DNA of 64,000 nucleotides from Bernardetia sp. (GTDB lineage Bacteria; Bacteroidota; Bacteroidia; Cytophagales; Bernardetiaceae), in contig JAHDBD010000016.1 in NCBI GenBank assembly GCA_020630575.1, forward strand, positions 43,155 through 107,154, read 5' to 3'. This document shows positions 4,481 to 39,239 of the stretch, piece by piece (the first letter of the stretch is position 1; the number at the start of each line of letters is the position of its first letter). The notes beneath the pieces are model-generated. The model searched no databases. It saw only the letters and a list, made by a program, of their open reading frames with translations, and was not told where the DNA came from. A program made the translations under genes and the position numbers.

Positions 4481-5341
4481 ATTTAGTTCTTCAAACACAT
4501 CAAAATTTTCAATAGAATGATATTCTTTGGGAATAGAGTTTAGTTTTGTTTTCTTTACATTTTTCATATCAGATGGATCTTCCCATTTTTTAGTTTTGAA
4601 AAATGTCCTTCTTGTAGTGTCTGCTATGTTTGGAGAAATATGTTCTAGTGTATCTATTTTTAATCCGTTCCATTTATATTTATAAAGTAACGGATTCCAG
4701 CCATAAGTAAGTCCTCTAATTACTTTTTCTTTTGGATAAAATGTAGGATTTATAAAATCATATTTTTCTGTAAACTTTGTTTTATTTTGAAATAAATAAA
4801 CATCACGTAATTCTGCTAAACAACAGCCACTCATGGGATAACTTTCTATAATAAAATCCTTTTTATTATCTCCATTTATATCTCTTATTGTATCTCCTTG
4901 ATATGTATTATGGTATCCATCAAAATAAAGTAAAGTTTGTAGAGAATCTGATTTTTCTATTGAATTATAATAGTACACACAAATTAGAGTTTGATAAATT
5001 GCACCTATACGAAGTACAGCATGAATACCATTTTCAGTAAAAAGATTGCCATATTTAATTTCTATTTGTAAATCTGAATTAGTTACTTTTGATTTGCTTT
5101 TATAATTATATTCATCTACTTTTTCATTTTTGTTCTCTTTGATTAAACTTTTGATTTTTTCCTTTGCCTCTCTTATTGTTGTTTTTAGTTCGCCATCAAA
5201 CTCATCATAAGCATCTTCCTCTGATAAATTGACTTTCGAAGAATCAATTTCTTGTTGTTGAGAAATAACTGTTTTATTTTCTTGACAAGAAAAAACACCT
5301 AATATCGTAATTACAAAAAGGAGTTTGAGTAGTGATTTCAT
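4472..5341 (-). CDS. hypothetical lipoprotein
   Basis: A 289-aa ORF with a signal peptide and lipobox 'LGVFSC'. It has no recognisable catalytic motifs. It overlaps the TetR stop by 9 nt (convergent). Confidence 0.5.
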   Translation of the reverse strand: MKSLLKLLFVITILGVFSCQENKTVISQQQEIDSSKVNLSEEDAYDEFDGELKTTIREAKEKIKSLIKENKNEKVDEYNYKSKSKVTNSDLQIEIKYGNLFTENGIHAVLRIGAIYQTLICVYYYNSIEKSDSLQTLLYFDGYHNTYQGDTIRDINGDNKKDFIIESYPMSGCCLAELRDVYLFQNKTKFTEKYDFINPTFYPKEKVIRGLTYGWNPLLYKYKWNGLKIDTLEHISPNIADTTRRTFFKTKKWEDPSDMKNVKKTKLNSIPKEYHSIENFDVFEELNSH

Positions 5342-5433
5342 AAAATTATACTGAATTGAATAGATTTTTAGCCGAAAGCTAAAGCATTTGGTACATTTTT
5401 CTCACGCTAAAGCATAAGCTACATGGATTACAT

Positions 5434-6438
5434 TTAATACTGCTGCAATGTATTTTCAAGTTCCATTCGAATCTGTGAAGAAAGAGGCGCAGGACTAATC
5501 ACACGAACCGACGAACCATAGCCCAAAATCAACATTTTGAGTTCGTAATTTACAATCAAATGCAGACGTATTCTGTATTCATTATCATCTTCTATCAAAA
5601 CTTCTTGCGTATGATGAATGGGTTGTGATTTGATATATTTTCCTTGAAAAGGGTCAAAACTCAAAATTACATCTTCTGGCTTTTGGTTGAGAGCCGAAAC
5701 GCCAATACAATAATGATAAAATTCTTCTGGATTAAAATGCGCCTGTTCAGGAGTCATAAAAAGTGTTTCATCAGAAGGTTCTATGTCCATTATTCTATCC
5801 AATCCAAAGGTTCTGACTTCGTTATATTTGCGTACCCAACCAATCAAATACCACATATTTCGGTATTCTTTGAGCAAATAAGGATGAATACTGTATGGTT
5901 TTGTGTGTGGTTCGTTATGTTTTTGATAGAATATTTTGATAACGTTTTGCTCTGAAATATGATAGATTAAATCTTTAAGTTGGTGCGTTCCTTTTCCTTT
6001 ATAAATCGATTGTTCGACCTGAATAATTCGCTGTACATTTTTTTGGATTTCCGAACTTTTGGCAATTTCCATTCCGTCCAAAACCTTATCTACTGCTCCT
6101 GAAAATTCATTAAAAATAGGAAGTTCTCTAAACTCTCCCAAAAGAGATTCTACAAAAGCCATTGCAAGCTGCTCATCATCAGAAAGATTGACCGACAAAA
6201 ACTTGTACTTTGAATCCGAATAAGAGTAACCTCTCATTTTTTTACTATACTCAATCGGTGCATCGAATTCATCACGCATAGCAGCCAAATCTTTTTCGAT
6301 GGTAGAAGCTGACGAAACTCCAAAACGCTCACGACATGCCTCCAATAATTCATCTTTAGTAGGAAAGGGTTTGAATTTGCTGCGTAACATTTGGTCAATG
6401 AGCAAATAACGAAAAAAAGCGAGTTTGGTAGCTGCCAT
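5434..6438 (-). CDS. WYL-domain transcriptional regulator (HTH-WYL-WCX, YafY/CapW/BrxR-like)
   Basis: The N-terminal HTH 'AATKLAFFRYLLIDQML...' is followed by a central WYL motif 'YRNMWYLIGW' and a C-terminal extension. The start was re-assigned to the ATG at comp(6436-6438) (MAATKL). The first 41 codons of the track ORF translate the family A repeat element and are not counted as coding. Confidence 0.75.
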   Translation of the reverse strand: MAATKLAFFRYLLIDQMLRSKFKPFPTKDELLEACRERFGVSSASTIEKDLAAMRDEFDAPIEYSKKMRGYSYSDSKYKFLSVNLSDDEQLAMAFVESLLGEFRELPIFNEFSGAVDKVLDGMEIAKSSEIQKNVQRIIQVEQSIYKGKGTHQLKDLIYHISEQNVIKIFYQKHNEPHTKPYSIHPYLLKEYRNMWYLIGWVRKYNEVRTFGLDRIMDIEPSDETLFMTPEQAHFNPEEFYHYCIGVSALNQKPEDVILSFDPFQGKYIKSQPIHHTQEVLIEDDNEYRIRLHLIVNYELKMLILGYGSSVRVISPAPLSSQIRMELENTLQQY

Positions 6439-6444
6439 AAGAAC

Positions 6445-6500
6445 AATTACGAATTTAAAATTACGAATTACGAAATAATCAGCGTAGCTAATTACGAATG
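6445..6500. repeat. family A repeat copy (AATTACGAATTtaaaATTACGAATTACGAAATAATCAGCGTAGCTAATTACGAAT)
   Basis: It lies between the stop of the TIR/WD40 gene and the WYL gene start. Other copies are at 27785-27820 (same orientation) and 60320-60416 (including a reverse-complement copy, CGTAATTAGCTACGCTGA). Confidence 0.6.
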
Positions 6501-6651
6501 AGTGTATTTCATAAGTAACTGCTAAAAGTGAGTTTATGTGTCTAAAATAAATATAAGGCATCGAAAAGTAGCATTTTTAGCATGACTTTTCTTTATTAAT
6601 TTACTTATTTCTAACAAAAGACGCATTTTAAAAGGATTTTGCCAAAAAAAA

Positions 6652-9600
6652 TTAATCACTTACTTCTATTCCACTATCAATTCGTAGTCTTTCAAAAAAC
6701 TCTTCTTGTTTTTGGGTTGTGATTTCGGTTATAATAAGCATATCTACATCTAACTCTAACCATTCTAACCAATCTGATTTATTGTAGTATTTAGTGTATA
6801 TTTTCTCTGCTTCTTCAAAATGATCATTTACCAAAAATGCTATGAAAGCACTACGAGTAAAGAACTCATTACTAAATTCTTTATCAATTCCTTTTTGTGC
6901 CATTTTGAGAACCTCTTCTTTTTTGTTTATATCCAATCCTTTGTCTATTGCTACTGAAAGTGCATATTGATGATTCAACTGATTTTTTTCTGAAAATCCT
7001 TTTTTTGTTAACGCAATGTCGAACAAACTAACTATTTTCAAAGCAATAGGATATTTCTCTACACTATATCCTGCCTCTTTTAGTTTCTTTTCATACTGTG
7101 TTATGATTGCCATAATTTCTTTCAAATTTGCCTTTTCTATTTCTTCTTCACTTGGTTCTACACCTATACTAAGTAAGTCAGATATATTGGGAGTATACAA
7201 ATTATTACTTTTAATTGGAGAGTTTACAGTATTCCAAACTTTCATATTTCCATCTTCATCAACAGAATATATTTTTTTATTATCATTAGAGAATATGGTC
7301 TCATTTACATTCGCTTGATGTCCTGTAAAAGTCTTGATAAGATTGCCCTCTAAGTCCCAAACTTTGATAGAACGATCTGTACTGGATGTAATGATTTGTT
7401 CATTATTAAGTGATAACTCTCCTCCTAAAACAAAAGAAGTATGTCCTTTTAAATTAGCTTTTACTTTTCCATTCCAATCACTCAAAATAGCATTATCATT
7501 TCGCCCTCCCACAAGAATTAGCTCTTTTTCTTTTGATAAATTTAAGACATATATATGATGAGGATAAAGAGAATTAAGAGTTTTGTATATATTTTCCATT
7601 TCTATATCCCATATTTGGAGTGTTCCTTGTTCATCTCCAATTCCTATGTACTTCGAATTTTTTGGATCAAAAGTAATTGCAGAAACTTTTTTGGGTGTAC
7701 TTATTACTAATTGTCTTGTTAAATCATTCGTATTATAAATGAATACTCTTCCTTTACCTTCGTCAGTATTATCTGCGCCAATAGCAATATACTTGTTATC
7801 ACCAGAAATAGCTACTTTTCTAACATGATTAGGGATTGTTATGAGGGCTTTTCTCTCTGTCAAGTCTGTATTCCATATTTCCACTTGCTTGTTCCACAGT
7901 CCTACAATTATTTTTGTCCCATCTTTTGAGAAGGTAGAAGACATAACTGTTGTCTGATATTCTTTTTGTCTTATCAGTTTGCCATCTTCTGTGTATAGTT
8001 TTAAAGATTTGTCGTAAGAAGATGTAAGTAAATTATTGTTTGTTGGGTGCTGAGAAAGACCTGTAACTGATTTTTGATGTATATTTTTTTCTTGCAACAA
8101 ATTCCCTTCATCTTGCCAAACCAATACCGTTCTATCATGTGAGGAAGTAATCATTTTATCATCTATGAAACCAATCCCACTCACACGGTCTTGATGTCCT
8201 TTGAAAGTATGAACTAGATTGCCTGTTAGATTCCATTTTTGAACATTTCCATTTAATAATCCAGCTAAAATATAATTTCCATCAGGGGAAAAGCTAACAC
8301 TCTTTACATAATCAGTAGGAACTATAAAAATAGGTTCACTTATATTTGATAATTTCCATAATATTATTCTTCTCTTTCCCCAACTGCCTGTTACTAACAA
8401 ACTATCATTTGGAGAAATATCAATTGCTTCTACATGTTCAATATCTGAAAAGAAATAATCTTGTATCTCTAAATTAGTATCAAGAATATTAGCATCTTTT
8501 CTCGTGGAAACAATTATTTTTTTTCCATCAGAAGTAATTTGTATATCTGTAATTTCTTCTTCTTTCAAGTCATTTTCTGCAACAACTTCCTGTGTTTCGA
8601 TGTTCCATTTTTTTATATACGAGTCATAATCGCCAGTAATAATATGTTTGTTATCTGGCATAAATACAACTTTACTCATCGCAGTCTCATCATCGTTTTG
8701 TAATGTTGCTATCAATTCTCCTTCTTTAGTCCAGACTGTTATTTTGTTTTCTCCTCCCAAAGCAATAAGTTCTCCGTCACTTGAAAAAGCTACTGTACCA
8801 ATATACGCCTTATGCCCTGCTATGCTGCGAGTAAGCTCTCCATTGCTTGACAAACCTGAATCTGCTGAGCCAACTCTGTCTGCTCCTCCTGCTATACCAA
8901 TACGTTTGCCACTACTATTTATTAGATGTGCTGTTTTGTCTGAACTTCCTGTCAGTATTGTTCCATCAGGAGAAACAGCTATTTCATTGATTGATGCAGT
9001 ATGCCCTTTATATTTTGTTTCGTAAAAGGAATAATTCCGATGGATAGAAAATACTACATCTTTGGTAATTGGTTTTGGATTTTCTTGGTACGCTTCTTTT
9101 GCTAAAAACAAAGCATAGGTAGGGTCTTTTTCTGTCAGTTGTAAGGCAGTAGATATTTTTGCATTTGATTTTGATTCTTTATCTGCTACTTTTTGAGAAA
9201 TAATTGCTTTTTCTTTTGCTTGCTTGGCTTTATTTTCTGCTAGTTCAGCTTCAATACGTTTTGCTTCTGCAAAATTCTTTGAATTTAGGGCATCAGATAA
9301 TGCTTTTTGAAGTTTTTTTTCTTTTTCTTGTAATTGAACTAATGCTTCGCTCGTTTCTTTTTTTGCTTCATCAGCAGCTTTTAAGGCTTTTTTTGCGTCT
9401 CTTTCTGCCAATTTTGCTCTATCTCTTTGTTCTTCTGCTTGAATACGATTTCGATTAGCTCTTTCATTCAATAATAAAGCATTATTACGAAGACGATATA
9501 CATAAAAACTAATTCCAACAAATGCGATAAGAGCCACAACAGCCACAGCCAAAAGTCCTCTAAGGCGTTTGATTGTGTTTTTTTCTTTACGTTGTAACGC

Positions 9601-11487
9601 AAAAATGGCAGCATCACTTTCTTTTAAATATTCTCTTTGTAAAGCAGTTGGTTTTGGTTTTTTGTCTTCTTTATCAGCAGACTCTAACCACGCAGAAGCT
9701 AAAGCAAAACTACTTCCTCTGAGCAAATAATCTTTATTTTTATCACTTTGTTTCCATTGTAAAGCCTCTTTTTGCCATACATTGTGCATTCTGACATATT
9801 CTCTATCTGTATCTAATGTTCGGATTACTTCACCAAACTGCTTACTAAAATCCTTATCTACAAAATCTATCCATTGAACAGCAGCCAAAGCAGGTGGCAA
9901 CGTAGAAGGGTCAGTTTCTCTGTGCAAAACAGTAATAAAACGTTTTCCTAGCTTTTGAGCATACTCAACCTCATCAGCACAATAAGGCGACTGAATAGCA
10001 TCTGGAGAAATAACAAACAGAAAATTAGTCGCCCCTTCTATTCCTCTATAAATTTCTTGTTGAAAATCTGCACCTGAGGCAATACTTTCTTGGTCAAACC
10101 ACGTCGTTTTTCCATTAAATTGTAGTTCTTCGTTTAGCTTTCTAGCAAAATCACTATCTGTACGAGAATAAGAAACAAAAACCTCTGTGTCTAAATTTCC
10201 ACTTTTGGCTTCACTTTCTAAAATAAAATTTTCGTGCAACGGTAAAGGCTGATGTTTACTTAATTTCTGTCCTCGTTTGAGCCAAACTTTTGCTTCATCT
10301 AGTTTGTGTCCTCTCAAAAGAACAGAAGTATTATTATTTTGCCTTTCCCATTTTAAAGCATTGGTTAAAAATACTTTGTGTTTTTTGTAATGCTCTCTAT
10401 TTCGGTTTATTTCTTCTACTAATGTATCGATGTCTTTCTCAAAATCTGTCTTTTCATTCTTTGAAGTAACTTCTGTAATTATATTATCTGTAAAATCAAT
10501 ATATTGTAAGTTCTTGATTTGTGCAGGAAAGTCTTTTATTGGAACTTCTTCTATCAGCAAAGGAATAATTCTTTTGTTCAGTTTTACAGCGTATTCTAGC
10601 TCAAAAAGACAGTATTCTGAAATAATAGAATCTTTAGTAATAAAAAACAGAAAATTATCAGCTCCTTCAATTCCTCTTTCTATGGCTTTATCAAATTCCT
10701 CTCCTTTTACAATATCTCGGTTATGTGTCCAAGTCGTAATTAAATGCCTTGCCAAAGCCAAACGAACAGATTCTCTTTCTTCTTTGTCTTGAGAAGAATA
10801 TGAAATAAAACAGTCTGTCAATAAATTTTCAGCATTTTTTCGTGATTCACAAAGGTAATCAGTGTGCAATTCAGAAGGCTGACAAGGAGGTTGCTGATTT
10901 TTAAATTCTGTCAAAAGCCACTCTTCGGCTTCCTGTCTTTCCTTTCCTACTAAAAGTAAATGAGAGTCGTTGTTATGCGTTTCCCAGTTGAGGGCTTTGT
11001 CTAAAATCTCGGTGTGCTTTCTAACATATTCTTTATTCTTTTCTACTAAATTCCAAAGTCCTTCCAAGGCTTCTTCATAATTATCTATCGTTTTGTAGTC
11101 TTCTTGTGGAATATCTTTTTGCCATTCTTGGCGCATATAAACCCAGTTTATTTTTCCAATGGCTGGGTGAAGTTGCTGCCACGTTTCATCATCTGTTGGC
11201 TCAATTTGAAGAATAGGAACAATTCGTTTTCCTCTTTTTACGGCTAAATCAATTTCCTTTCTACAATACACCGAACGCACAGCATGAGGCGCAATAATAA
11301 AAACAAAAACATCTGCTTTTTCGATTCCTTCATCAATCTGATTTTGAAAATCTACACCTAATGGAATATCATTTTGGTCAAACCAAACATCATAACCTCG
11401 TTCACATAAATTATCATGCAATTTTTTAGCAAAGGCTTTTGATTCAGCTCTGCCGTAAGAAATGAAGACATTATTGAAATTTGACAT
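6652..11487 (-). CDS. giant 3xTIR - TM - coiled-coil - WD40 repeat protein
   Basis: A 1611-aa uninterrupted ORF. Three TIR units (aa ~6-120, ~226-335, ~435-545) each have a betaA 'F(I/V)SY' and an alphaC 'S-x-Y-C-x-x-E-[ILV]' (SVYCRKEI, SEYCLFEL, SPYCADEV). Each TIR is followed by a repeated linker motif (ALNWE..NDSHLLLVGKERQEAEEWL; ALKWE..NTSVLLRGHKLDEAKVWL; ALQWK..KDYLLRGSSFALASAWL). One hydrophobic helix is at aa ~644-664 (LLAVAVVALIAFVGISFYVY). A K/E/A-rich coiled coil spans aa ~670-785. At least 10 WD40 blades with GH...WD signatures span aa ~810-1400. The C-terminal ~200 aa are helical. Confidence 0.9.
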   Translation of the reverse strand: MSNFNNVFISYGRAESKAFAKKLHDNLCERGYDVWFDQNDIPLGVDFQNQIDEGIEKADVFVFIIAPHAVRSVYCRKEIDLAVKRGKRIVPILQIEPTDDETWQQLHPAIGKINWVYMRQEWQKDIPQEDYKTIDNYEEALEGLWNLVEKNKEYVRKHTEILDKALNWETHNNDSHLLLVGKERQEAEEWLLTEFKNQQPPCQPSELHTDYLCESRKNAENLLTDCFISYSSQDKEERESVRLALARHLITTWTHNRDIVKGEEFDKAIERGIEGADNFLFFITKDSIISEYCLFELEYAVKLNKRIIPLLIEEVPIKDFPAQIKNLQYIDFTDNIITEVTSKNEKTDFEKDIDTLVEEINRNREHYKKHKVFLTNALKWERQNNNTSVLLRGHKLDEAKVWLKRGQKLSKHQPLPLHENFILESEAKSGNLDTEVFVSYSRTDSDFARKLNEELQFNGKTTWFDQESIASGADFQQEIYRGIEGATNFLFVISPDAIQSPYCADEVEYAQKLGKRFITVLHRETDPSTLPPALAAVQWIDFVDKDFSKQFGEVIRTLDTDREYVRMHNVWQKEALQWKQSDKNKDYLLRGSSFALASAWLESADKEDKKPKPTALQREYLKESDAAIFALQRKEKNTIKRLRGLLAVAVVALIAFVGISFYVYRLRNNALLLNERANRNRIQAEEQRDRAKLAERDAKKALKAADEAKKETSEALVQLQEKEKKLQKALSDALNSKNFAEAKRIEAELAENKAKQAKEKAIISQKVADKESKSNAKISTALQLTEKDPTYALFLAKEAYQENPKPITKDVVFSIHRNYSFYETKYKGHTASINEIAVSPDGTILTGSSDKTAHLINSSGKRIGIAGGADRVGSADSGLSSNGELTRSIAGHKAYIGTVAFSSDGELIALGGENKITVWTKEGELIATLQNDDETAMSKVVFMPDNKHIITGDYDSYIKKWNIETQEVVAENDLKEEEITDIQITSDGKKIIVSTRKDANILDTNLEIQDYFFSDIEHVEAIDISPNDSLLVTGSWGKRRIILWKLSNISEPIFIVPTDYVKSVSFSPDGNYILAGLLNGNVQKWNLTGNLVHTFKGHQDRVSGIGFIDDKMITSSHDRTVLVWQDEGNLLQEKNIHQKSVTGLSQHPTNNNLLTSSYDKSLKLYTEDGKLIRQKEYQTTVMSSTFSKDGTKIIVGLWNKQVEIWNTDLTERKALITIPNHVRKVAISGDNKYIAIGADNTDEGKGRVFIYNTNDLTRQLVISTPKKVSAITFDPKNSKYIGIGDEQGTLQIWDIEMENIYKTLNSLYPHHIYVLNLSKEKELILVGGRNDNAILSDWNGKVKANLKGHTSFVLGGELSLNNEQIITSSTDRSIKVWDLEGNLIKTFTGHQANVNETIFSNDNKKIYSVDEDGNMKVWNTVNSPIKSNNLYTPNISDLLSIGVEPSEEEIEKANLKEIMAIITQYEKKLKEAGYSVEKYPIALKIVSLFDIALTKKGFSEKNQLNHQYALSVAIDKGLDINKKEEVLKMAQKGIDKEFSNEFFTRSAFIAFLVNDHFEEAEKIYTKYYNKSDWLEWLELDVDMLIITEITTQKQEEFFERLRIDSGIEVSD

Positions 11488-11571: not shown

Positions 11572-12648
11572 TTATTCCTTTGAATATCGTTTACTTCTAA
11601 TTTCAACTAATGCTTGTTCTAGTTTTTTCACATTTGGATAATCTGGCAAAGTAGAATTTTTATAGGCTTTTTCTAACTCTTCAATTTTTCGGTCTGCTTT
11701 TTCGATAAGCTCTTCATAGGTAAAAAATCCACTTCTGATTTTTAACAATTCTTCTCTGTTTGGACGTTTTACAATGACTTCTTTTTTCTCCAAAATCTCA
11801 ATCGCCATATCTAGAAGGCGAAAAGTGTGCATCATATTTTTTGCATCGTAATTTTTGCCGTGTTCAAGTGTGTTTTCATAGCGTGTGTCATTTCGCTTTT
11901 CTACCCAATCCCAATATTGTTTGTATTCCTTGCAATGCGCTGCATAACCTTCTTTATTGAAATATAAATAAGCAATTGGTTTTTCTCCTTTCGGAATACT
12001 GCTCAAACTAACTTCATTGGATTCATTATTTTTCAAGATTCCTTTATAATAAAAGTCATTTTGCTCATTTTGATTATGATAAAAAAGCAAATACGTATTT
12101 TTGATATGATTTATTGACGAAAGTCCACAATTCTCCTGTTTGTAATCATTTGTTTTAAGCCATTTTTGAAGAGAAATACTTCCATTATCAGTCAGAATAT
12201 AGCAAAAATCTAAAACTGTTTTTCTTTCCTTTGGCATCGGATTAAAAATTTTCTTCTTTAATCCTTTTGCTTTTTTGATTTGAGTAAGGGCATAACCTGC
12301 AAAAGTATCTCTACATAATTTTGATAAAATATCTTCCGACTTTATCAAATCAAGAATTGGATTTTTGTAAAAAACATCTTCTTTTGCAGTATGAAAAATC
12401 TCAATCGCAGACGGATTATTTTTTGATAAAAGTTCTATAAAACGTTTTATTTCATAAAAAACAATGTCATTTTTTTCATCGCTCACTTGTGGAACATAGT
12501 CTAATCCATAAAATTCTTCTTTTGGTAGAATAAAAATTCCTTTTATATCTGTGTCCGAAGTTGGTAAATCTGTTCCGTAGGCTTTACTTCCTGCAAGTGC
12601 TTCTAGGAGGATTAGATTTTTTTCTTTTAGTGTTTCTAGGTTCATCAT
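11572..12648 (-). CDS. Pol-beta-superfamily nucleotidyltransferase (PF10127 / 'RlaP'-like predicted NTase)
   Basis: A 358-aa ORF. The N-terminal 'LEALAGSKAYGTDLPTSDTDIKGIF' is a G-S-x9-D-x-D nucleotidyltransferase motif. The long helical C-terminal domain is typical of this stand-alone NTase family. It lies 84 bp upstream of the TIR/WD40 gene and runs the same way. Confidence 0.7.
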   Translation of the reverse strand: MMNLETLKEKNLILLEALAGSKAYGTDLPTSDTDIKGIFILPKEEFYGLDYVPQVSDEKNDIVFYEIKRFIELLSKNNPSAIEIFHTAKEDVFYKNPILDLIKSEDILSKLCRDTFAGYALTQIKKAKGLKKKIFNPMPKERKTVLDFCYILTDNGSISLQKWLKTNDYKQENCGLSSINHIKNTYLLFYHNQNEQNDFYYKGILKNNESNEVSLSSIPKGEKPIAYLYFNKEGYAAHCKEYKQYWDWVEKRNDTRYENTLEHGKNYDAKNMMHTFRLLDMAIEILEKKEVIVKRPNREELLKIRSGFFTYEELIEKADRKIEELEKAYKNSTLPDYPNVKKLEQALVEIRSKRYSKE

Positions 12649-12931: not shown

Positions 12932-14050
12932 ATGAGATTGATAAAATTTGCTATTCTTTTTATCCTAATAACTCAGACCGTTTTTGCTCAAAAACCAATA
13001 GCCAATGAGTTTTCAGCCATCGATAAAAAAGCATTGGAACTACCTGATTCATTGACAAAAAATACTAATCTTATTGCAAATTATATTACTTCCAACTTTG
13101 TAACTGATGAAGACAAATCACGAGCAATATTTATTTGGGTTGCATCAAACATTGAATATGACATTGAAAATATGTTTGCAATAAATTTTTACGCAAAAAA
13201 AGAAGATAAAATAGCAAAATCACTTGAGACAAGAAAAGGAATTTGCGAAAATTATGCTTTATTATTTACAGATATATGTATTAAATCAGGTATTAAATCT
13301 TTTGTAATAGAAGGTTATACAAAGCAAAATGGCTTTACTGACTACATTCCTCATGCTTGGAGCGCAGCAATAATTGACAGCTCATGGGTTTTCTTTGATC
13401 CAACTTGGGGTTCTGGTTATGTAGATGGTGGAAAGTTTTTTAAGAAAATAAATAATGAATACTATAAAACTAATCCAACAACACTCATCAAATCTCACAT
13501 ACCTTTTGATTACTTATGGCAGTTTGTAAATTACCCAATAACAAACCAAGAATTTTATGAAGGTAAGATACAACAAGACAAAACTAAGCAGTTTTTTAAC
13601 TTCAAGGATACAATCCAAGTTTATGAAAAACAAAGTCATATTGAACAATTAGTTTCTACAGCATACCGTGTAGAAAAAAATGGAGTAAAAAATTCATTGA
13701 TTTTTAATCGACTTCATCGTTTAAAATTAGAAATAGAGAATAACCGAAAAATAACAATTGTAAACCTATATAATTCAGCTGTTTTTGAATATAATGATGC
13801 AATCAAAGGTTTAAATGATATTATAAATTATAGAAACCAAAGAATTACACTCAAAAAAGCTGATCCTAAAATACAGAGCCTGATTGATTTTGCAGATAAT
13901 AAAATAAAAGAGGCAAAAGGTAAATTAGACCAAATTGCAAATCCTGATGTAAACACAGCTAATATGATTCAGCAATTAACTAAATCAATAGATGATGCTT
14001 CAAAAAAATTGCAGGAGCAACAAGATTGGTTAACACTATATTTTAAGTAA
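12932..14050 (+). CDS. secreted transglutaminase-like cysteine protease-fold protein
   Basis: It has a signal peptide. The Cys-His-Asp triad context 'GICENYALLFTDIC', 'IPHAWSAAI' and 'VFFDPTWG' matches the transglutaminase-like core. The C-terminal part is a helical domain. Confidence 0.7.
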   Translation: MRLIKFAILFILITQTVFAQKPIANEFSAIDKKALELPDSLTKNTNLIANYITSNFVTDEDKSRAIFIWVASNIEYDIENMFAINFYAKKEDKIAKSLETRKGICENYALLFTDICIKSGIKSFVIEGYTKQNGFTDYIPHAWSAAIIDSSWVFFDPTWGSGYVDGGKFFKKINNEYYKTNPTTLIKSHIPFDYLWQFVNYPITNQEFYEGKIQQDKTKQFFNFKDTIQVYEKQSHIEQLVSTAYRVEKNGVKNSLIFNRLHRLKLEIENNRKITIVNLYNSAVFEYNDAIKGLNDIINYRNQRITLKKADPKIQSLIDFADNKIKEAKGKLDQIANPDVNTANMIQQLTKSIDDASKKLQEQQDWLTLYFK

Positions 14051-14422: not shown

Positions 14423-15850
14423 ATGAAAATTTCATTCTATAAATATAGTTCAAAATACGCTCTTTTGTGCATATTTTTGCTTACTTCTTTTTCACTTTTT
14501 GCTCAACAAAAACCAAGTTTAGATAATCATGGTAAAGGTTTGTTATTGGAAGCAGAAGTAAAAGAAAGCGAAAAAATTCAATTAAAATCTCAGCAAACAG
14601 AAGAAAGTTATCGTGGTTTGCCTTCTGCCGTTTCGCTCAAACAATACTGCCCCACCCCAGGGGATCAAGGAAGTTATGGAACGTGTGTGGGTTGGACAAC
14701 AGCGTATGCTGCAAGAACAATTTTAGAAGCTCGTCAGTTGGATTTGCGCTCACAAGCCGAAATTGACAAACTTATTTTTTCCCCTGGATTTATTTACAAA
14801 TTAGTAAAAGAAGAAGAAGACCAAGATTGTACCTATGGTGCAATTATGACCGATGCACTCAAAAAAATGCAGGTTCATGGCGTAGCAAAACGCAGTAGTT
14901 TTCCTGAGCAATGTGTTGACTATGTTCCTGAGAGAACCTACAAAGAAGCCGAAGAATATAAATTAAAAGATTATGTGCGTTTGTGGAATATTAGCTTTAC
15001 ACAAGAAGAACGAATTTTGGCACTCAAAAAAAGTTTGACAGAGGGAAATCCTGTTGTAGTAGGAATGGAAGCCCCTCCTTCAATTTATCAAGCACAAGAG
15101 TTTTGGCGACCTACTGAAATAGCTGGTCAAGGATGGGGAGGACATGCTATTTGTGTAGTTGGCTTTGATGATAAAAAAGGAGAAAGAGGTTCTTTTGAAA
15201 TAATGAACAGTTGGGGAACAGGCTGGGCAAATGGTGGTTTTACTTGGATAGAATATGATACGTTTACTGATTTTGTGCGTTTTGCTTACGAACTTGTGCC
15301 TTATTATAAACCAAAAAAAGAACGTCCTTTACTCGCTGGAAGTTTGCGTTTTGAACTTGCCAATGGAAACAAAATTGACTTAAAAAAGAATGGAGTTGCT
15401 ACTTACAAAACGCCTCAGCCTTTTAGTGGAGGAACTAATTTCCGTCTCTATCTTTCTAATTTCGAACCTGCTTATGTATATGCTTTTGCAACTGATAAAA
15501 CCAAAAATGTACAAGTTGTTTTTCCTCATAAAGCTTATATAAGTCCATTTTTGCCCTATCATAATGGCGAAATTGCTTTTCCAGACGAAAAACATTATCT
15601 AACGATGGACAATGTAGCTGGAACAGATTATTTTTGTGTTATTTATTCTCGTTATCCTTTAGATATAAATGATATTTATCAGAAGTTAGGACAACGAAAA
15701 GGGACACTTAAAGAGGGTTTAGAGCAAGTTTTGGGGAATAAATTAGTGAGTACAAATGAAGTCGCTTATTCTCAAAATGAAGTGAAATTTTCTACTAGTT
15801 CGCTAAAAGGAACAGCCGCTTTTTTTGTGGTAGAATTGGAACATAAATAA
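14423..15850 (+). CDS. secreted papain-family (C1A) cysteine peptidase with C-terminal extension
   Basis: It has a signal peptide. The active-site Cys context 'QGSYGTCVGWTTAYA' and His 'GGHAICVVGFDD' are present. The Asn/Trp context 'NSWGTGWANGGFTWIEY' is also present. About 180 aa follow C-terminal to the peptidase unit. Confidence 0.8.
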   Translation: MKISFYKYSSKYALLCIFLLTSFSLFAQQKPSLDNHGKGLLLEAEVKESEKIQLKSQQTEESYRGLPSAVSLKQYCPTPGDQGSYGTCVGWTTAYAARTILEARQLDLRSQAEIDKLIFSPGFIYKLVKEEEDQDCTYGAIMTDALKKMQVHGVAKRSSFPEQCVDYVPERTYKEAEEYKLKDYVRLWNISFTQEERILALKKSLTEGNPVVVGMEAPPSIYQAQEFWRPTEIAGQGWGGHAICVVGFDDKKGERGSFEIMNSWGTGWANGGFTWIEYDTFTDFVRFAYELVPYYKPKKERPLLAGSLRFELANGNKIDLKKNGVATYKTPQPFSGGTNFRLYLSNFEPAYVYAFATDKTKNVQVVFPHKAYISPFLPYHNGEIAFPDEKHYLTMDNVAGTDYFCVIYSRYPLDINDIYQKLGQRKGTLKEGLEQVLGNKLVSTNEVAYSQNEVKFSTSSLKGTAAFFVVELEHK

Positions 15851-38400: not shown

Positions 38401-39239
38401 TCTAGTGTTTGAACTTGGTTATTTTCTATAATAGCAATTCCTTCAGTCGTTCCGATATATAGTTTCGGGTTTTTATAATTTTCTTCATATAAAATTTCAG
38501 TAACATTATTGGTAGGTAAACCCTCTTTTTGAGTAAATTCTTTTACTTTTTGACCATCAAAATGAACTAACCCTACTCCAGTAATGGCAAAATAGATATT
38601 TCCTTGTTGATCACCTGCAATTTTTTTGACAGTAGTATTCTTATAGTCTGTTACAGCTCCTGTTGCATTTGTTATTCCTTGCCATTTTATTAACTTTTCA
38701 TTTTCCACAAAAAAAATTCCTTTACCTCTTGTTCCTAACCAAATTCGTTTGGGTTTATTATTTCTACTTTTTTCTATAAAAATAGCTTCTATACGTACAG
38801 ATAGAGTATCAAATAAAGATTCAATTTGACGGTTTTTATAATGCACGAGTCCATTTCCTTCTGAGCCTATCCAAATTTCTGATTCTTTGCCACTTTCATC
38901 TGATTCTACTTCTATTGCTGTAAAACTATTGGTATTAAATTCAGGATTAGTAGAGTTAGTATAAGTCTGAAAGTTTGCGCCATCAAACTTTACTAGTCCA
39001 TCATATCCTGTTACCCAAATAAAACCTATATCATCCTGAATAATATAATTTGTTGTATTTGAAGGCAATCCTTCAGCTGTTGTCCAGTTGGTAAGAATAT
39101 ATTGAGTAAGACTTTTATCAGGCAAAAGTCCTTGTTGGGCAGTCGTATTGAGCTGTGGCTGTGCATAAGAAACTACAGACAGACAACAGTACAATATAAT
39201 AGTTGTAAAAAAATTAATATAATATATTCTATTTATCAT
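35409..39239 (-). CDS. sensor protein-serine phosphatase: periplasmic two-component-regulator propeller repeats + Y_Y_Y domain, TM helix, coiled coil, GAF, PP2C/SpoIIE phosphatase
   Basis: It is 1276 aa with a signal peptide. It has ~12 'IW(I/V)GT..G(L/I)' propeller repeats. The Y_Y_Y-like 'VKFRYKMEGVDKDWISAEE...YTFKVEAYNEEG' is present, then a TM 'IAVFVLFLLILYFVY'. The C-terminal 'DVVSGDFYWLSHTPRGIYLVVSDCTGHGVPGAFMAMIG' is a PP2C/SpoIIE motif. Confidence 0.8.
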   Translation of the reverse strand: MINRIYYINFFTTIILYCCLSVVSYAQPQLNTTAQQGLLPDKSLTQYILTNWTTAEGLPSNTTNYIIQDDIGFIWVTGYDGLVKFDGANFQTYTNSTNPEFNTNSFTAIEVESDESGKESEIWIGSEGNGLVHYKNRQIESLFDTLSVRIEAIFIEKSRNNKPKRIWLGTRGKGIFFVENEKLIKWQGITNATGAVTDYKNTTVKKIAGDQQGNIYFAITGVGLVHFDGQKVKEFTQKEGLPTNNVTEILYEENYKNPKLYIGTTEGIAIIENNQVQTLEVASQDYINSIYIDNFSSMWIGTNNGLIRVTQDEKIERLNEENGLPHNIVRKVIQDKEKNIWLTCYKGGIVQLKQGKFTNYTTEDGFTNNSINVLEVFDENTILVGADFPQLNLIHKGNAMAFKYLIKNLKARIKAIQKAYDGSVWIGSDNGVVQLQKFDPLAKIPYTKEVFYNEKNGLSSNIIRTIFEDTNHNIWIGTRTGGITIISPSGEISYHNTETGFPSNFIMSINQDKDGIIWVGTNNAGIIKLKEKKQIEHLLAEQGLVSELIFSTYIDEENTVWATSTQGISKIKNGKVTNFTAKNGLPFSSVFDILEDKSGNFWCTTSQGIFVIAKKDFEKITKGEIDKLPFELFNKSDGMKENQCSGAAFSLKTSDEHFWFPTVGGVASIDPSSIPMNQIPPNIVINKMTVDGKSIVNNKELIILPAGTQRIIFDYSGLSFVRPSDVKFRYKMEGVDKDWISAEEERKATYTSLPPKKYTFKVEAYNEEGLKSEEVASLKFEIKPLLYQTITFKIAVFVLFLLILYFVYRWRVQRIEKRNQKLEKTVEQRTAEINQQKEEIQVQHERLESSYKNIDLVSKIGQQVTAELDIEIIIQTIYTQVTNLMPTDGFGIGIYNEFNNTLEFKYYIEKGELQPSSSDSLEDNTLLSVKSFNEKEDIWINDMESKYKHYKEIKEIRQDDLTSSLIYVPLFLNSKPAGVLTVQSFEKNAYTPESVSVLRALASYITIALSNAKSFSTIQKKNQEITDSIRYAQTIQHAVLPAKEKLDEILGANFLIYMPKDVVSGDFYWLSHTPRGIYLVVSDCTGHGVPGAFMAMIGISVFNELINLQKIEEPVDILEKLDQEIQIALQQQQAKNSDGMDLVLCRIENLQNNGKTKVTFAGAKNSLFYTKNDKIKRLKGSRRSIGGRRSKSNKRLFTQTSLELEKGEILYLTTDGYIDQNAPNEQRIGTQAFMERLESVQHLPLSEQKEVLLETLKDFQKNAPQRDDIAIIGVKI

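Follow-up and report, generated by a model that had tools for sequence, protein, structure and literature searches.

A Bernardetia protein with three TIR domains, a predicted membrane helix and a double WD40 propeller represents a large family of candidate transmembrane TIR receptors

Enzymes in which TIR domains cleave NAD+ (NADases) depend on a head-to-tail, two-stranded packing of these domains, which creates a composite active site. To our knowledge, nearly all characterised bacterial TIR systems sense intracellular events. A related design has been published for the EACC2-caspase proteins, which combine one constant N-terminal effector with C-terminal sensors that vary and are sometimes extracellular (Kaur et al. 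2021, PMC8195603), and TIR effectors and FGE-sulfatase/C-lectin sensors have been described in multicellular bacteria (PMC7159879, PMC10907252). Here we analyse a gene at 6652..11487 on the minus strand of a 64,000-nt stretch of DNA from Bernardetia sp. (assembly GCA_020630575.1, contig JAHDBD010000016.1, positions 43,155 to 107,154), the whole of which is referred to below as the window. The open reading frame list and the translation give an ATG start, 1611 amino acids and a stop codon, as an earlier, preliminary description of this DNA had stated. Its product belongs to a large family for which we found no published description and which combines a TIR effector with a predicted transmembrane sensor. 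Arrays of TIR domains behind a membrane helix are not described in the full-text literature searched, which is not proof of absence. We propose, with a probability of roughly 0.55, that the protein is a type-II single-pass inner-membrane receptor with TIR NADase activity that is activated by an extracytoplasmic ligand.

The N-terminal part of the protein is built from repeated modules. A Pfam search identifies three TIR_2 stretches (E 6.6e-79; PF13676, 262.7 bits against a cutoff of 28), which place the protein in the TIR superfamily, as well as WD40 repeats (E 2.1e-61). Each TIR domain is followed by a linker of about 87 residues, and the three TIR-plus-linker units align over ~210 residues with 30-36% identity and 45 invariant columns; tblastn comparisons of module against module yield E-values of 1e-33 to 1e-35. 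The alignment thus bears out the proposal, made in the preliminary description, that a ~210-residue module has been duplicated. Invariant columns include F8, S10 and Y11, S72, Y74, C75 and E78, and L178, L179, G181, A187, W190 and L191. Hence the FxSY strand and the S-x-Y-C-x-x-E motif are kept in all three TIR domains, and the common linker motif, A-L-x-W...L-L-x-G...A-x-x-W-L, is likewise invariant across the modules, both as previously noted. The conserved glutamates of helix alphaC had been placed at E77, E296 and E506; the latter two positions are right, and the first is E78.

The position of this glutamate corresponds to that seen in NADase TIR domains. E78 aligns with the WxxxE-motif glutamate of both AbTir (7uwg) and BtTir (7uxr), which in AbTir is the catalytic residue. 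All of the 47 homologues compared have E78 and E296, and at least 90% of them have E506. The best sequence matches in the PDB are the NADase TIRs BtTir, SPARTA TIR-APAZ and AbTir, with SARM1 lower down. Structures were modelled as single chains with AlphaFold2 in two parts, residues 1-700 and residues 700-1611. The modelling of the TIR block that the preliminary description had suggested gives three TIR domains, each followed by four helices (mean predicted local distance difference test score, pLDDT, 86.6; predicted TM-score, pTM, 0.76). In linker 1, these helices span residues 137-149, 152-170, 181-191 and 206-219, and the sequence follows the pattern H..ALxW...LLxG...A..WL...P.P..LH..(F/Y)(I/L)..S. 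Foldseek comparison with the PDB gives TM-scores of 0.82 for AbTir and 0.74-0.79 for the SARM1 TIR, and the matches to the TIR block also include the TIR domains of SPARTA, MyD88 and Toll-like receptors (TLRs). When the whole block is used, only single-TIR matches are obtained, and no solved chain with multiple TIRs is among them. For the linker, no credible Pfam-A family was found at E up to 10, and a linker profile run against PDB sequences produced only a chance-level match (E 0.37). Together, the conserved residues and the modelled fold make it probable that the three TIR domains are catalytically competent and cleave NAD.

Some of the same data could be read differently, with the TIR array serving as a non-catalytic scaffold that gathers free TIR proteins or other partners in the manner of TLR, MyD88 and MAL. 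Such a platform would suit a module number that varies from 3 to 10 among homologues, the Foldseek matches to the scaffold TIRs of MyD88 and TLRs point the same way, and the Flexithrix homologue has a separate 269-aa TIR_2 gene immediately upstream. We consider a scaffold improbable, because each of the three TIRs has a catalytic-type glutamate that varies little or not at all across phyla, because the closest sequence matches are NADase TIRs, and because no partner TIR gene is conserved.

Each module resembles the cyanobacterial module at the matching position (~50% identity) more closely than it does the other two modules of its own chain, and linkers 1, 2 and 3 each carry a signature of their own that is common to Bacteroidota and cyanobacteria. 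Over the N-terminal 700 residues, identity to cyanobacterial homologues is 46-54%, and over the C-terminal 912 residues it is only 17-26%. The position-specific linker signatures and the high N-terminal identity across phyla indicate that the triplication is ancient rather than recent and that all three modules have been retained.

The linker provides a handle on the size of the family. A profile of its 87 residues was searched against 1.84 billion cluster representatives, as the preliminary description had suggested doing to find other proteins with this post-TIR element, and it matched 6,587 representatives at E <= 1e-3, 3,668 at <= 1e-10 and 318 at <= 1e-30. The best 150 of the 6,587 matches contain 3-7 copies each, and the window protein is among these 150 (278 bits, three stretches). 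Its closest relatives are encoded by Bernardetia sp. ABR2-2B (80% identity) and OM2101 (78%). Flexithrix, Flammeovirgaceae and other Bacteroidota have more distant homologues, as do many filamentous cyanobacteria as well as Parabeggiatoa, Halobeggiatoa and Thioploca. We define the family by at least three TIR modules, each with an H..W..LLxG..A..WL linker, followed within about 80 residues of the last linker by a hydrophobic helix. The window protein has this (TIR+linker)n - membrane helix - variable sensor architecture, with 3-10 TIR-plus-linker modules being carried by its homologues.

A single hydrophobic helix at residues ~644-664 had been noted in the preliminary description, and the sequence agrees: residues 645-663 have a mean Kyte-Doolittle hydropathy of 2.72, compared with 1.08 for the next best segment of the protein. 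The helix comprises 21 uncharged residues, begins 18 residues after the last module and is 95-100% identical among the three Bernardetia orthologues. Across phyla, its sequence turns over and it nevertheless stays hydrophobic. A basic cluster, RKEKNTIKRLR, lies at the predicted inner face at the end of linker 3.

The orientation of the protein in the membrane was derived by comparative sequence analysis, which offers four indirect lines of evidence. The first concerns the N terminus. In both the sequence and the model, the first TIR strand, betaA, begins at residue 5, which leaves no room for a signal peptide and confirms the earlier suggestion that none is present. A folded N-terminal block of 640 residues is not exportable without a signal peptide, and NAD+, the TIR substrate, is cytoplasmic. 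The lack of a signal peptide and the location of the substrate therefore argue that the TIR domains are inside.

The second line of evidence is the distribution of positive charges. We surveyed 243 linker-bearing relatives with a sufficiently long tail for a strong hydrophobic helix within 90 residues after the last linker, and such a helix was found in 209 of them. In these 209 relatives, the mean number of lysine plus arginine residues over the 15 flanking positions is 5.16 on the N-terminal side and 2.84 on the C-terminal side. The N-terminal count is higher in 192 proteins, equal in nine and lower in eight. The preliminary description had judged that the positive-inside rule does not settle the topology, which holds for the window protein taken alone, but the family-wide bias is clear.

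The third line of evidence comes from relatives in which the same chassis bears a different sensor. CHASE2 and dCache are established extracytoplasmic sensors. CHASE2 takes the place of the WD40 part in eight relatives (P0087, P0064, P0122, P0124, P0133, P0169, P0193 and P0230), with scores of 153-187 bits against a cutoff of 26.3 and at least one further hydrophobic segment downstream. In P0132, a dCache_2 or Cache_3-Cache_2 domain (105-112 bits) is flanked by helices at 985 and 1270. The exchange of the WD40 part for sensors of this kind, bracketed by a second membrane segment, suggests that the WD40 part is likewise outside. In other relatives, the ectodomain is FGE-sulfatase, alone or with WG repeats, DM9, TPR, or WD40 with 7-9 additional helices behind it.

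Six relatives (P0161, P0164, P0171, P0181, P0202 and P0225) have 6-9 extra predicted membrane helices after an ectodomain of ~400-500 residues, which itself comes behind the first helix. WD40 repeats in the ectodomain are confirmed only for P0161 and P0202 of these six, and no Pfam family covers the polytopic part of any of them.

The fourth line of evidence is the cysteine content. The window protein has seven cysteines in residues 1-628 and none in the 945 residues after the helix, a distribution with a probability of ~2.5e-5 if the frequencies were equal. In 142 helix-bearing WD40 relatives, cysteine makes up 1.17% of residues before the helix and 0.35% after it, and 112 of them have no cysteine or an even number after the helix, against 30 with an odd number. 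Exactly two such cysteines are present in 83 of the 140 relatives counted. An even-cysteine bias is a known mark of exported, disulfide-bonded proteins. By comparison, nine WD40 relatives that lack the helix have 1.04% cysteine and an even-to-odd parity of 5 to 4. The charge bias, the sensor swaps and the cysteine pattern thus support the topology put forward in the preliminary description, and we consider it probable that the TIR domains are cytoplasmic and that the stalk, the WD40 part and the C-terminal domain are extracytoplasmic.

Several observations weigh against the proposed receptor or its topology. The C-terminal flank of the helix in the window protein is also basic, with 4-5 lysine plus arginine residues, where its two orthologues have only 2-3. 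The sequences in the census are mutually related, so that its counts overstate statistical independence. Eleven of the 243 relatives are truly without the helix and keep the segment that follows it, and because nine of them carry WD40 repeats, the WD40 part can evidently also work in the cytoplasm. WD40 repeats of the G-beta type are best known from cytoplasmic STAND proteins. In the AlphaFold2 model, the last helix of linker 3 runs continuously from residue 615 through the hydrophobic segment to residue 699, a stretch that is a single-chain prediction with a pLDDT of only 57-66. PADLOC and NCBIfam return only TIR-level or sub-threshold matches, and most homologues (those of Flexithrix, a Bacteroidota metagenome-assembled genome and Coleofasciculus) sit among housekeeping genes rather than in defence islands.

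The helix-less relatives with the same WD40 part, the STAND-like repeat type and the basic C-terminal flank would all be accommodated if the helix served for oligomerisation or as a peripheral anchor and the whole protein were a cytoplasmic, STAND-type sensor devoid of an NTPase. We regard this as very improbable. Twenty-one uncharged residues with a hydropathy of 2.72, kept hydrophobic across phyla, are difficult to reconcile with such a role, as are the family charge bias, the bracketed CHASE2 and dCache swaps and a cysteine depletion that is specific to the helix-bearing members.

In the receptor that we favour, the parts beyond the helix would form the sensor. The AlphaFold2 model of residues 700-1611 has a pLDDT of 86.7 and a pTM of 0.80. 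Its first portion is a stalk with helices at residues 701-735 and 739-784, and similar stalks are present in homologues from Flammeovirgaceae and Flexithrix; the stalk gives only weak, sub-threshold TolA-like and alanine-zipper matches, with no credible Pfam family at E up to 10. The propeller region contains 56 strands in 14 four-stranded groups (pLDDT ~90). The WD40 blades of the preliminary description are therefore present, but its estimate of at least 10 was too low, the structure prediction giving a count of 14. Foldseek ranks 2ymu, a 14-blade double propeller from Nostoc, first for residues 822-1419 and places further double-propeller proteins next, so that both the blade count and the top matches identify a tandem WD40 double propeller. 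The 14 modelled blades most likely form two seven-bladed propellers, a division suggested by the Foldseek matches. The C-terminal domain has about ten modelled helices (residues 1435-1605). No credible Pfam family was found for it at E up to 10, and a local phmmer search with residues 1420-1611 finds it only in the three Bernardetia orthologues; the tail of P0037, which bears TPR repeats, is similar only weakly and in a repeat-like manner. When residues 1419-1611 were used in a word-index homologue search, nothing was returned, the window protein itself included.

The two halves of the protein have evolved differently. Among the three Bernardetia orthologues, we compared the ratio of nonsynonymous to synonymous substitution rates (dN/dS), which is 0.00-0.11 for the TIR domains together with the membrane helix. 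The values for the TIR domains alone (0.035-0.11; TIR 2, 0.06-0.07; TIR 3, 0.035-0.046) reveal strong purifying selection. Linkers 2 and 3 range from 0.02 to 0.08 (linker 2, 0.03-0.05), and linker 1 reaches 0.195. The stalk, propellers and C-terminal domain have values of 0.14-0.31, and for the propellers the ratio is 3-5 times higher and is accompanied by a mosaic pattern of synonymous divergence (dS). In propeller 1, the window protein is 92% identical to ABR2-2B (dS 0.24) and 65% identical to OM2101 (dS 1.36); propeller 2 shows the reverse trend, with 66% identity to ABR2-2B and 80% to OM2101. This mosaic divergence suggests that sensor segments have been exchanged by recombination on a conserved signalling block, as would be expected for a receptor that faces a changing ligand.

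These features are consistent with a mechanism in which three cytoplasmic TIR domains would be connected through a linker helix, the membrane helix and the stalk to a periplasmic double propeller and helical end domain. A variable ligand outside the cytoplasm, for instance a component of a phage or foreign cell or a product of envelope damage, may bind to the propellers. Binding would change the oligomeric state or shift the stalk and membrane helix in register, and this change would be carried inward, where the tandem TIRs of neighbouring molecules could pack head-to-tail in two strands. The active TIRs would then cleave NAD+, either depleting it, so that the sensing cell stops growing or dies, or producing a signal derived from ADP-ribose. 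Because no partner gene is conserved, direct NAD+ depletion appears somewhat more likely than signalling to a dedicated effector.

A protein with the same topology could also act outside defence, as a signalling or programmed-cell-death receptor in multicellular, filamentous life. Its roles might then include kin or neighbour recognition, filament fragmentation or envelope-stress sensing, and the TIRs might make a nucleotide signal instead of killing. The family is indeed concentrated in filamentous gliders (Bernardetia, Flexithrix, Coleofasciculus, Microcoleus, Symploca, Parabeggiatoa and Thioploca), its genes lie among housekeeping genes, the CHASE2 and dCache domains of relatives are classic sensors of small-molecule signalling, and a gene for a WYL regulator adjoins the gene in Bernardetia. 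However, no conserved reader of a TIR-made signal is encoded beside the gene, the rapid, mosaic divergence of the propellers is more in keeping with an arms race than with a housekeeping signal, and the links made to date for bacterial TIR effectors are to conflict systems (PMC8195603, PMC7159879). We therefore consider a role outside defence unlikely, although it is the most serious competitor to a conflict receptor.

Table 1. Positions of the TIR-WD40 gene, its encoded domains and its neighbours. Coordinates with two dots refer to the window.
Feature	Residues and details	Coordinates	Strand	Basis
Whole gene		6652..11487	-	100% match to P0001; orthologues at 78-80% in two Bernardetia genomes
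TIR domain 1	aa 1-135, Glu E78	11083..11487	-	Pfam TIR_2 + TIR; model pLDDT ~90
Post-TIR linker 1	aa 136-221, four helices	10825..11082	-	Module alignments, model
TIR domain 2	aa 222-345, Glu E296	10453..10824	-	Pfam
Post-TIR linker 2	aa 346-432	10192..10452	-	Alignments, model
TIR domain 3	aa 433-544, Glu E506	9856..10191	-	Best Pfam TIR_2 stretch, 436-553
Post-TIR linker 3	aa 545-643	9559..9855	-	Model helix 615-699, flank charges
Single predicted transmembrane helix (signal anchor, N-in/C-out)	aa 644-664	9496..9558	-	Kyte-Doolittle 2.72
K/E/A-rich helical stalk and two cap helices	Stalk aa 665-784, cap helices aa 789-818	9025..9495	-	Both models
14 WD40 blades	aa 822-1419, disordered insert aa 860-883	7231..9024	-	Model, Foldseek, Pfam WD40
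C-terminal all-helical domain	aa 1420-1611, ~10 helices	6655..7230	-	Model
RlaP-like polymerase-beta-family nucleotidyltransferase	Upstream neighbour	11572..12648	-	Pfam PF10127
WYL-WCX transcription regulator	Downstream neighbour	5434..6561	-	Pfam WYL + WCX; PADLOC generic WYL
Flanking RlaP-like and WYL-WCX genes	Loci L001 and L002	L001 6831-7910 and 13054-14058; L002 6843-7910 and 12995-13999		

The genomic context points to a system that consists of a single gene. In each of the three Bernardetia genomes, the TIR gene lies between genes for an RlaP-like nucleotidyltransferase and a WYL-WCX regulator, all on one strand, and the outer flanks of this trio differ among the three. Of the neighbours, PADLOC recognises only the WYL regulator, as a generic type. 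Beside the homologues in Flexithrix, the Bacteroidota metagenome-assembled genome and Coleofasciculus, the RlaP and WYL neighbours are absent, and no neighbouring gene is conserved across phyla in the loci compared. Because the trio is conserved only within Bernardetia, we do not count RlaP and WYL as parts of the system; they are possibly a lineage-specific Bernardetia addition, and the putative WYL regulator may control expression of the TIR gene. The lack of any neighbour conserved in distant homologues is the reason for regarding the system as a single gene. No other TIR or WD40 gene is present within the 64-kb window, and an Rfam scan of the window gave zero matches.

Several features of these loci are recorded for completeness. 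The 269-aa TIR_2 gene of Flexithrix dorotheae mentioned above occupies positions 4911-5720 of locus L003, directly upstream of the multi-TIR-WD40 homologue P0038. In Bernardetia sp. OM2101, genes for an HNH_2 nuclease and a DNA methylase follow immediately after the WYL gene (L002 14419-17011); they are likely a restriction-modification pair and lend that locus a defence-island flavour, unlike the window. The window also encodes a bacterial counterpart of the eukaryotic major vault protein, homologous to it and 822 aa long (30764..33232, minus strand), in which Pfam recognises MVP_shoulder (111 bits) and a Vault_3 repeat. A gene for a transglutaminase-like protein (12932..14050, plus strand) adjoins one for a papain-family peptidase with DUF4384 (14423..15850, plus strand). 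The hydrophobic N termini of this pair suggest export, and the pair is also found in Bernardetia sp. OM2101.

We tentatively suggest that this family represents the first bacterial transmembrane TIR receptors to be recognised, comprising thousands of single-gene systems with ligands outside the cytoplasm and swappable ectodomains, a proposal that we hold as possible rather than probable. If it is correct, the family would be a prokaryotic working counterpart of Toll-like receptors, able to detect phage or foreign-cell components before a genome enters the cell, and bacteria, too, would use TIR signalling for outside-in sensing, as animals do. The tandem array would supply a ready-made strand of the active TIR filament within one chain, and the ectodomains that could be exchanged on it would include WD40, CHASE2, dCache, FGE-sulfatase/C-lectin, DM9 and TPR. 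Such proteins would offer a tractable model for how tandem TIRs stay off and switch on, and for the role of the conserved ~87-aa linker in ~6,600 protein clusters. The swappable ectodomains would also suit ligand discovery and the engineering of ligand-triggered NAD+ depletion switches.

The comparison with Toll-like receptors that was drawn in the preliminary description holds for the layout, which appears to be that of such a receptor in reverse, and does not extend to membership. As in animal Toll-like receptors, the window protein would have a single membrane pass, a repeat-built sensor outside and TIR domains inside, and activation would be expected from a ligand-induced association that unites the TIRs. 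However, Toll-like receptors are type I proteins with a leucine-rich repeat (LRR) ectodomain and a C-terminal TIR, whereas the window protein has WD40 repeats, a predicted type II orientation and three N-terminal TIRs, and no LRR was found in it. Moreover, its TIRs keep the NADase-type glutamate, whereas those of TLRs are scaffolds. Because the LRR is lacking, the orientation is reversed and the TIRs are of the enzymatic type, "Toll-like" can serve only as an analogy, and common descent of the whole architecture is not implied.

With AbTir, SARM1, SPARTA TIR-APAZ, Thoeris ThsB and plant TNLs, the window protein shares the TIR fold and the position of the glutamate. NADases of the assembly type also join an N-terminal TIR effector to a C-terminal sensor, but they are cytoplasmic and have one TIR per chain, whereas the TIRs examined here are in tandem and separated by a four-helix linker. 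No ThsA, pAgo, SAM or NB-ARC partner or domain accompanies the window protein. Assignment to Thoeris was rejected: the score for NCBIfam ThcB4, 106.7 bits, falls short of the cutoff of 220, and neither the window nor any of five related loci has a SIR2, Macro or SLOG gene in the vicinity. For SPARTA, the PADLOC profile Aga_TIR is covered at positions 5-173 of 430 only, there is neither an APAZ domain nor a pAgo neighbour, and PDB alignments to TIR-APAZ stop at residue 126-135 of the window protein. More generally, PADLOC and NCBIfam provide only generic TIR or sub-threshold matches, and filing the protein under Thoeris, SPARTA, CBASS-TIR or retron-TIR was rejected.

The propellers have counterparts of two kinds. 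The highly repetitive cyanobacterial WD40 double propellers (2ymu) and STAND-WD40 proteins have the same 14-blade organisation, but the window protein is without an NTPase and carries its propellers behind a helix and stalk. An architecture of the STAND/NLR TIR-NTPase-WD40 type was rejected because Pfam finds no NTPase and because the linker, helix and stalk lie between the TIRs and the WD40 part. The Bacteroidota Reg_prop/Y_Y_Y hybrid two-component sensors demonstrate that two-propeller sensors work in the Bacteroidota periplasm. They have Reg_prop rather than G-beta WD40 repeats, an N-terminal sensor and kinase or phosphatase outputs, with no TIR, and membership of that group was likewise rejected on the basis of a different propeller family, orientation and output. 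One such sensor is encoded elsewhere in the window (35409..39239, minus strand). This 1276-aa protein, which combines Reg_prop repeats and Y_Y_Y with GAF and a SpoIIE phosphatase domain, is of the classical propeller type of Bacteroidota, and its output is cytoplasmic.

By analogy, the nearest published design principle that we found is the constant effector and variable sensor of the EACC2-caspase proteins. In both families, a conserved effector is combined with swappable sensors, some of them placed behind membrane helices, CHASE2 among these, and others intracellular, and both are enriched in multicellular bacteria. The effector itself is what sets them apart, being a caspase with an EACC2 domain in the one family and an array of TIR-plus-linker modules in the other.

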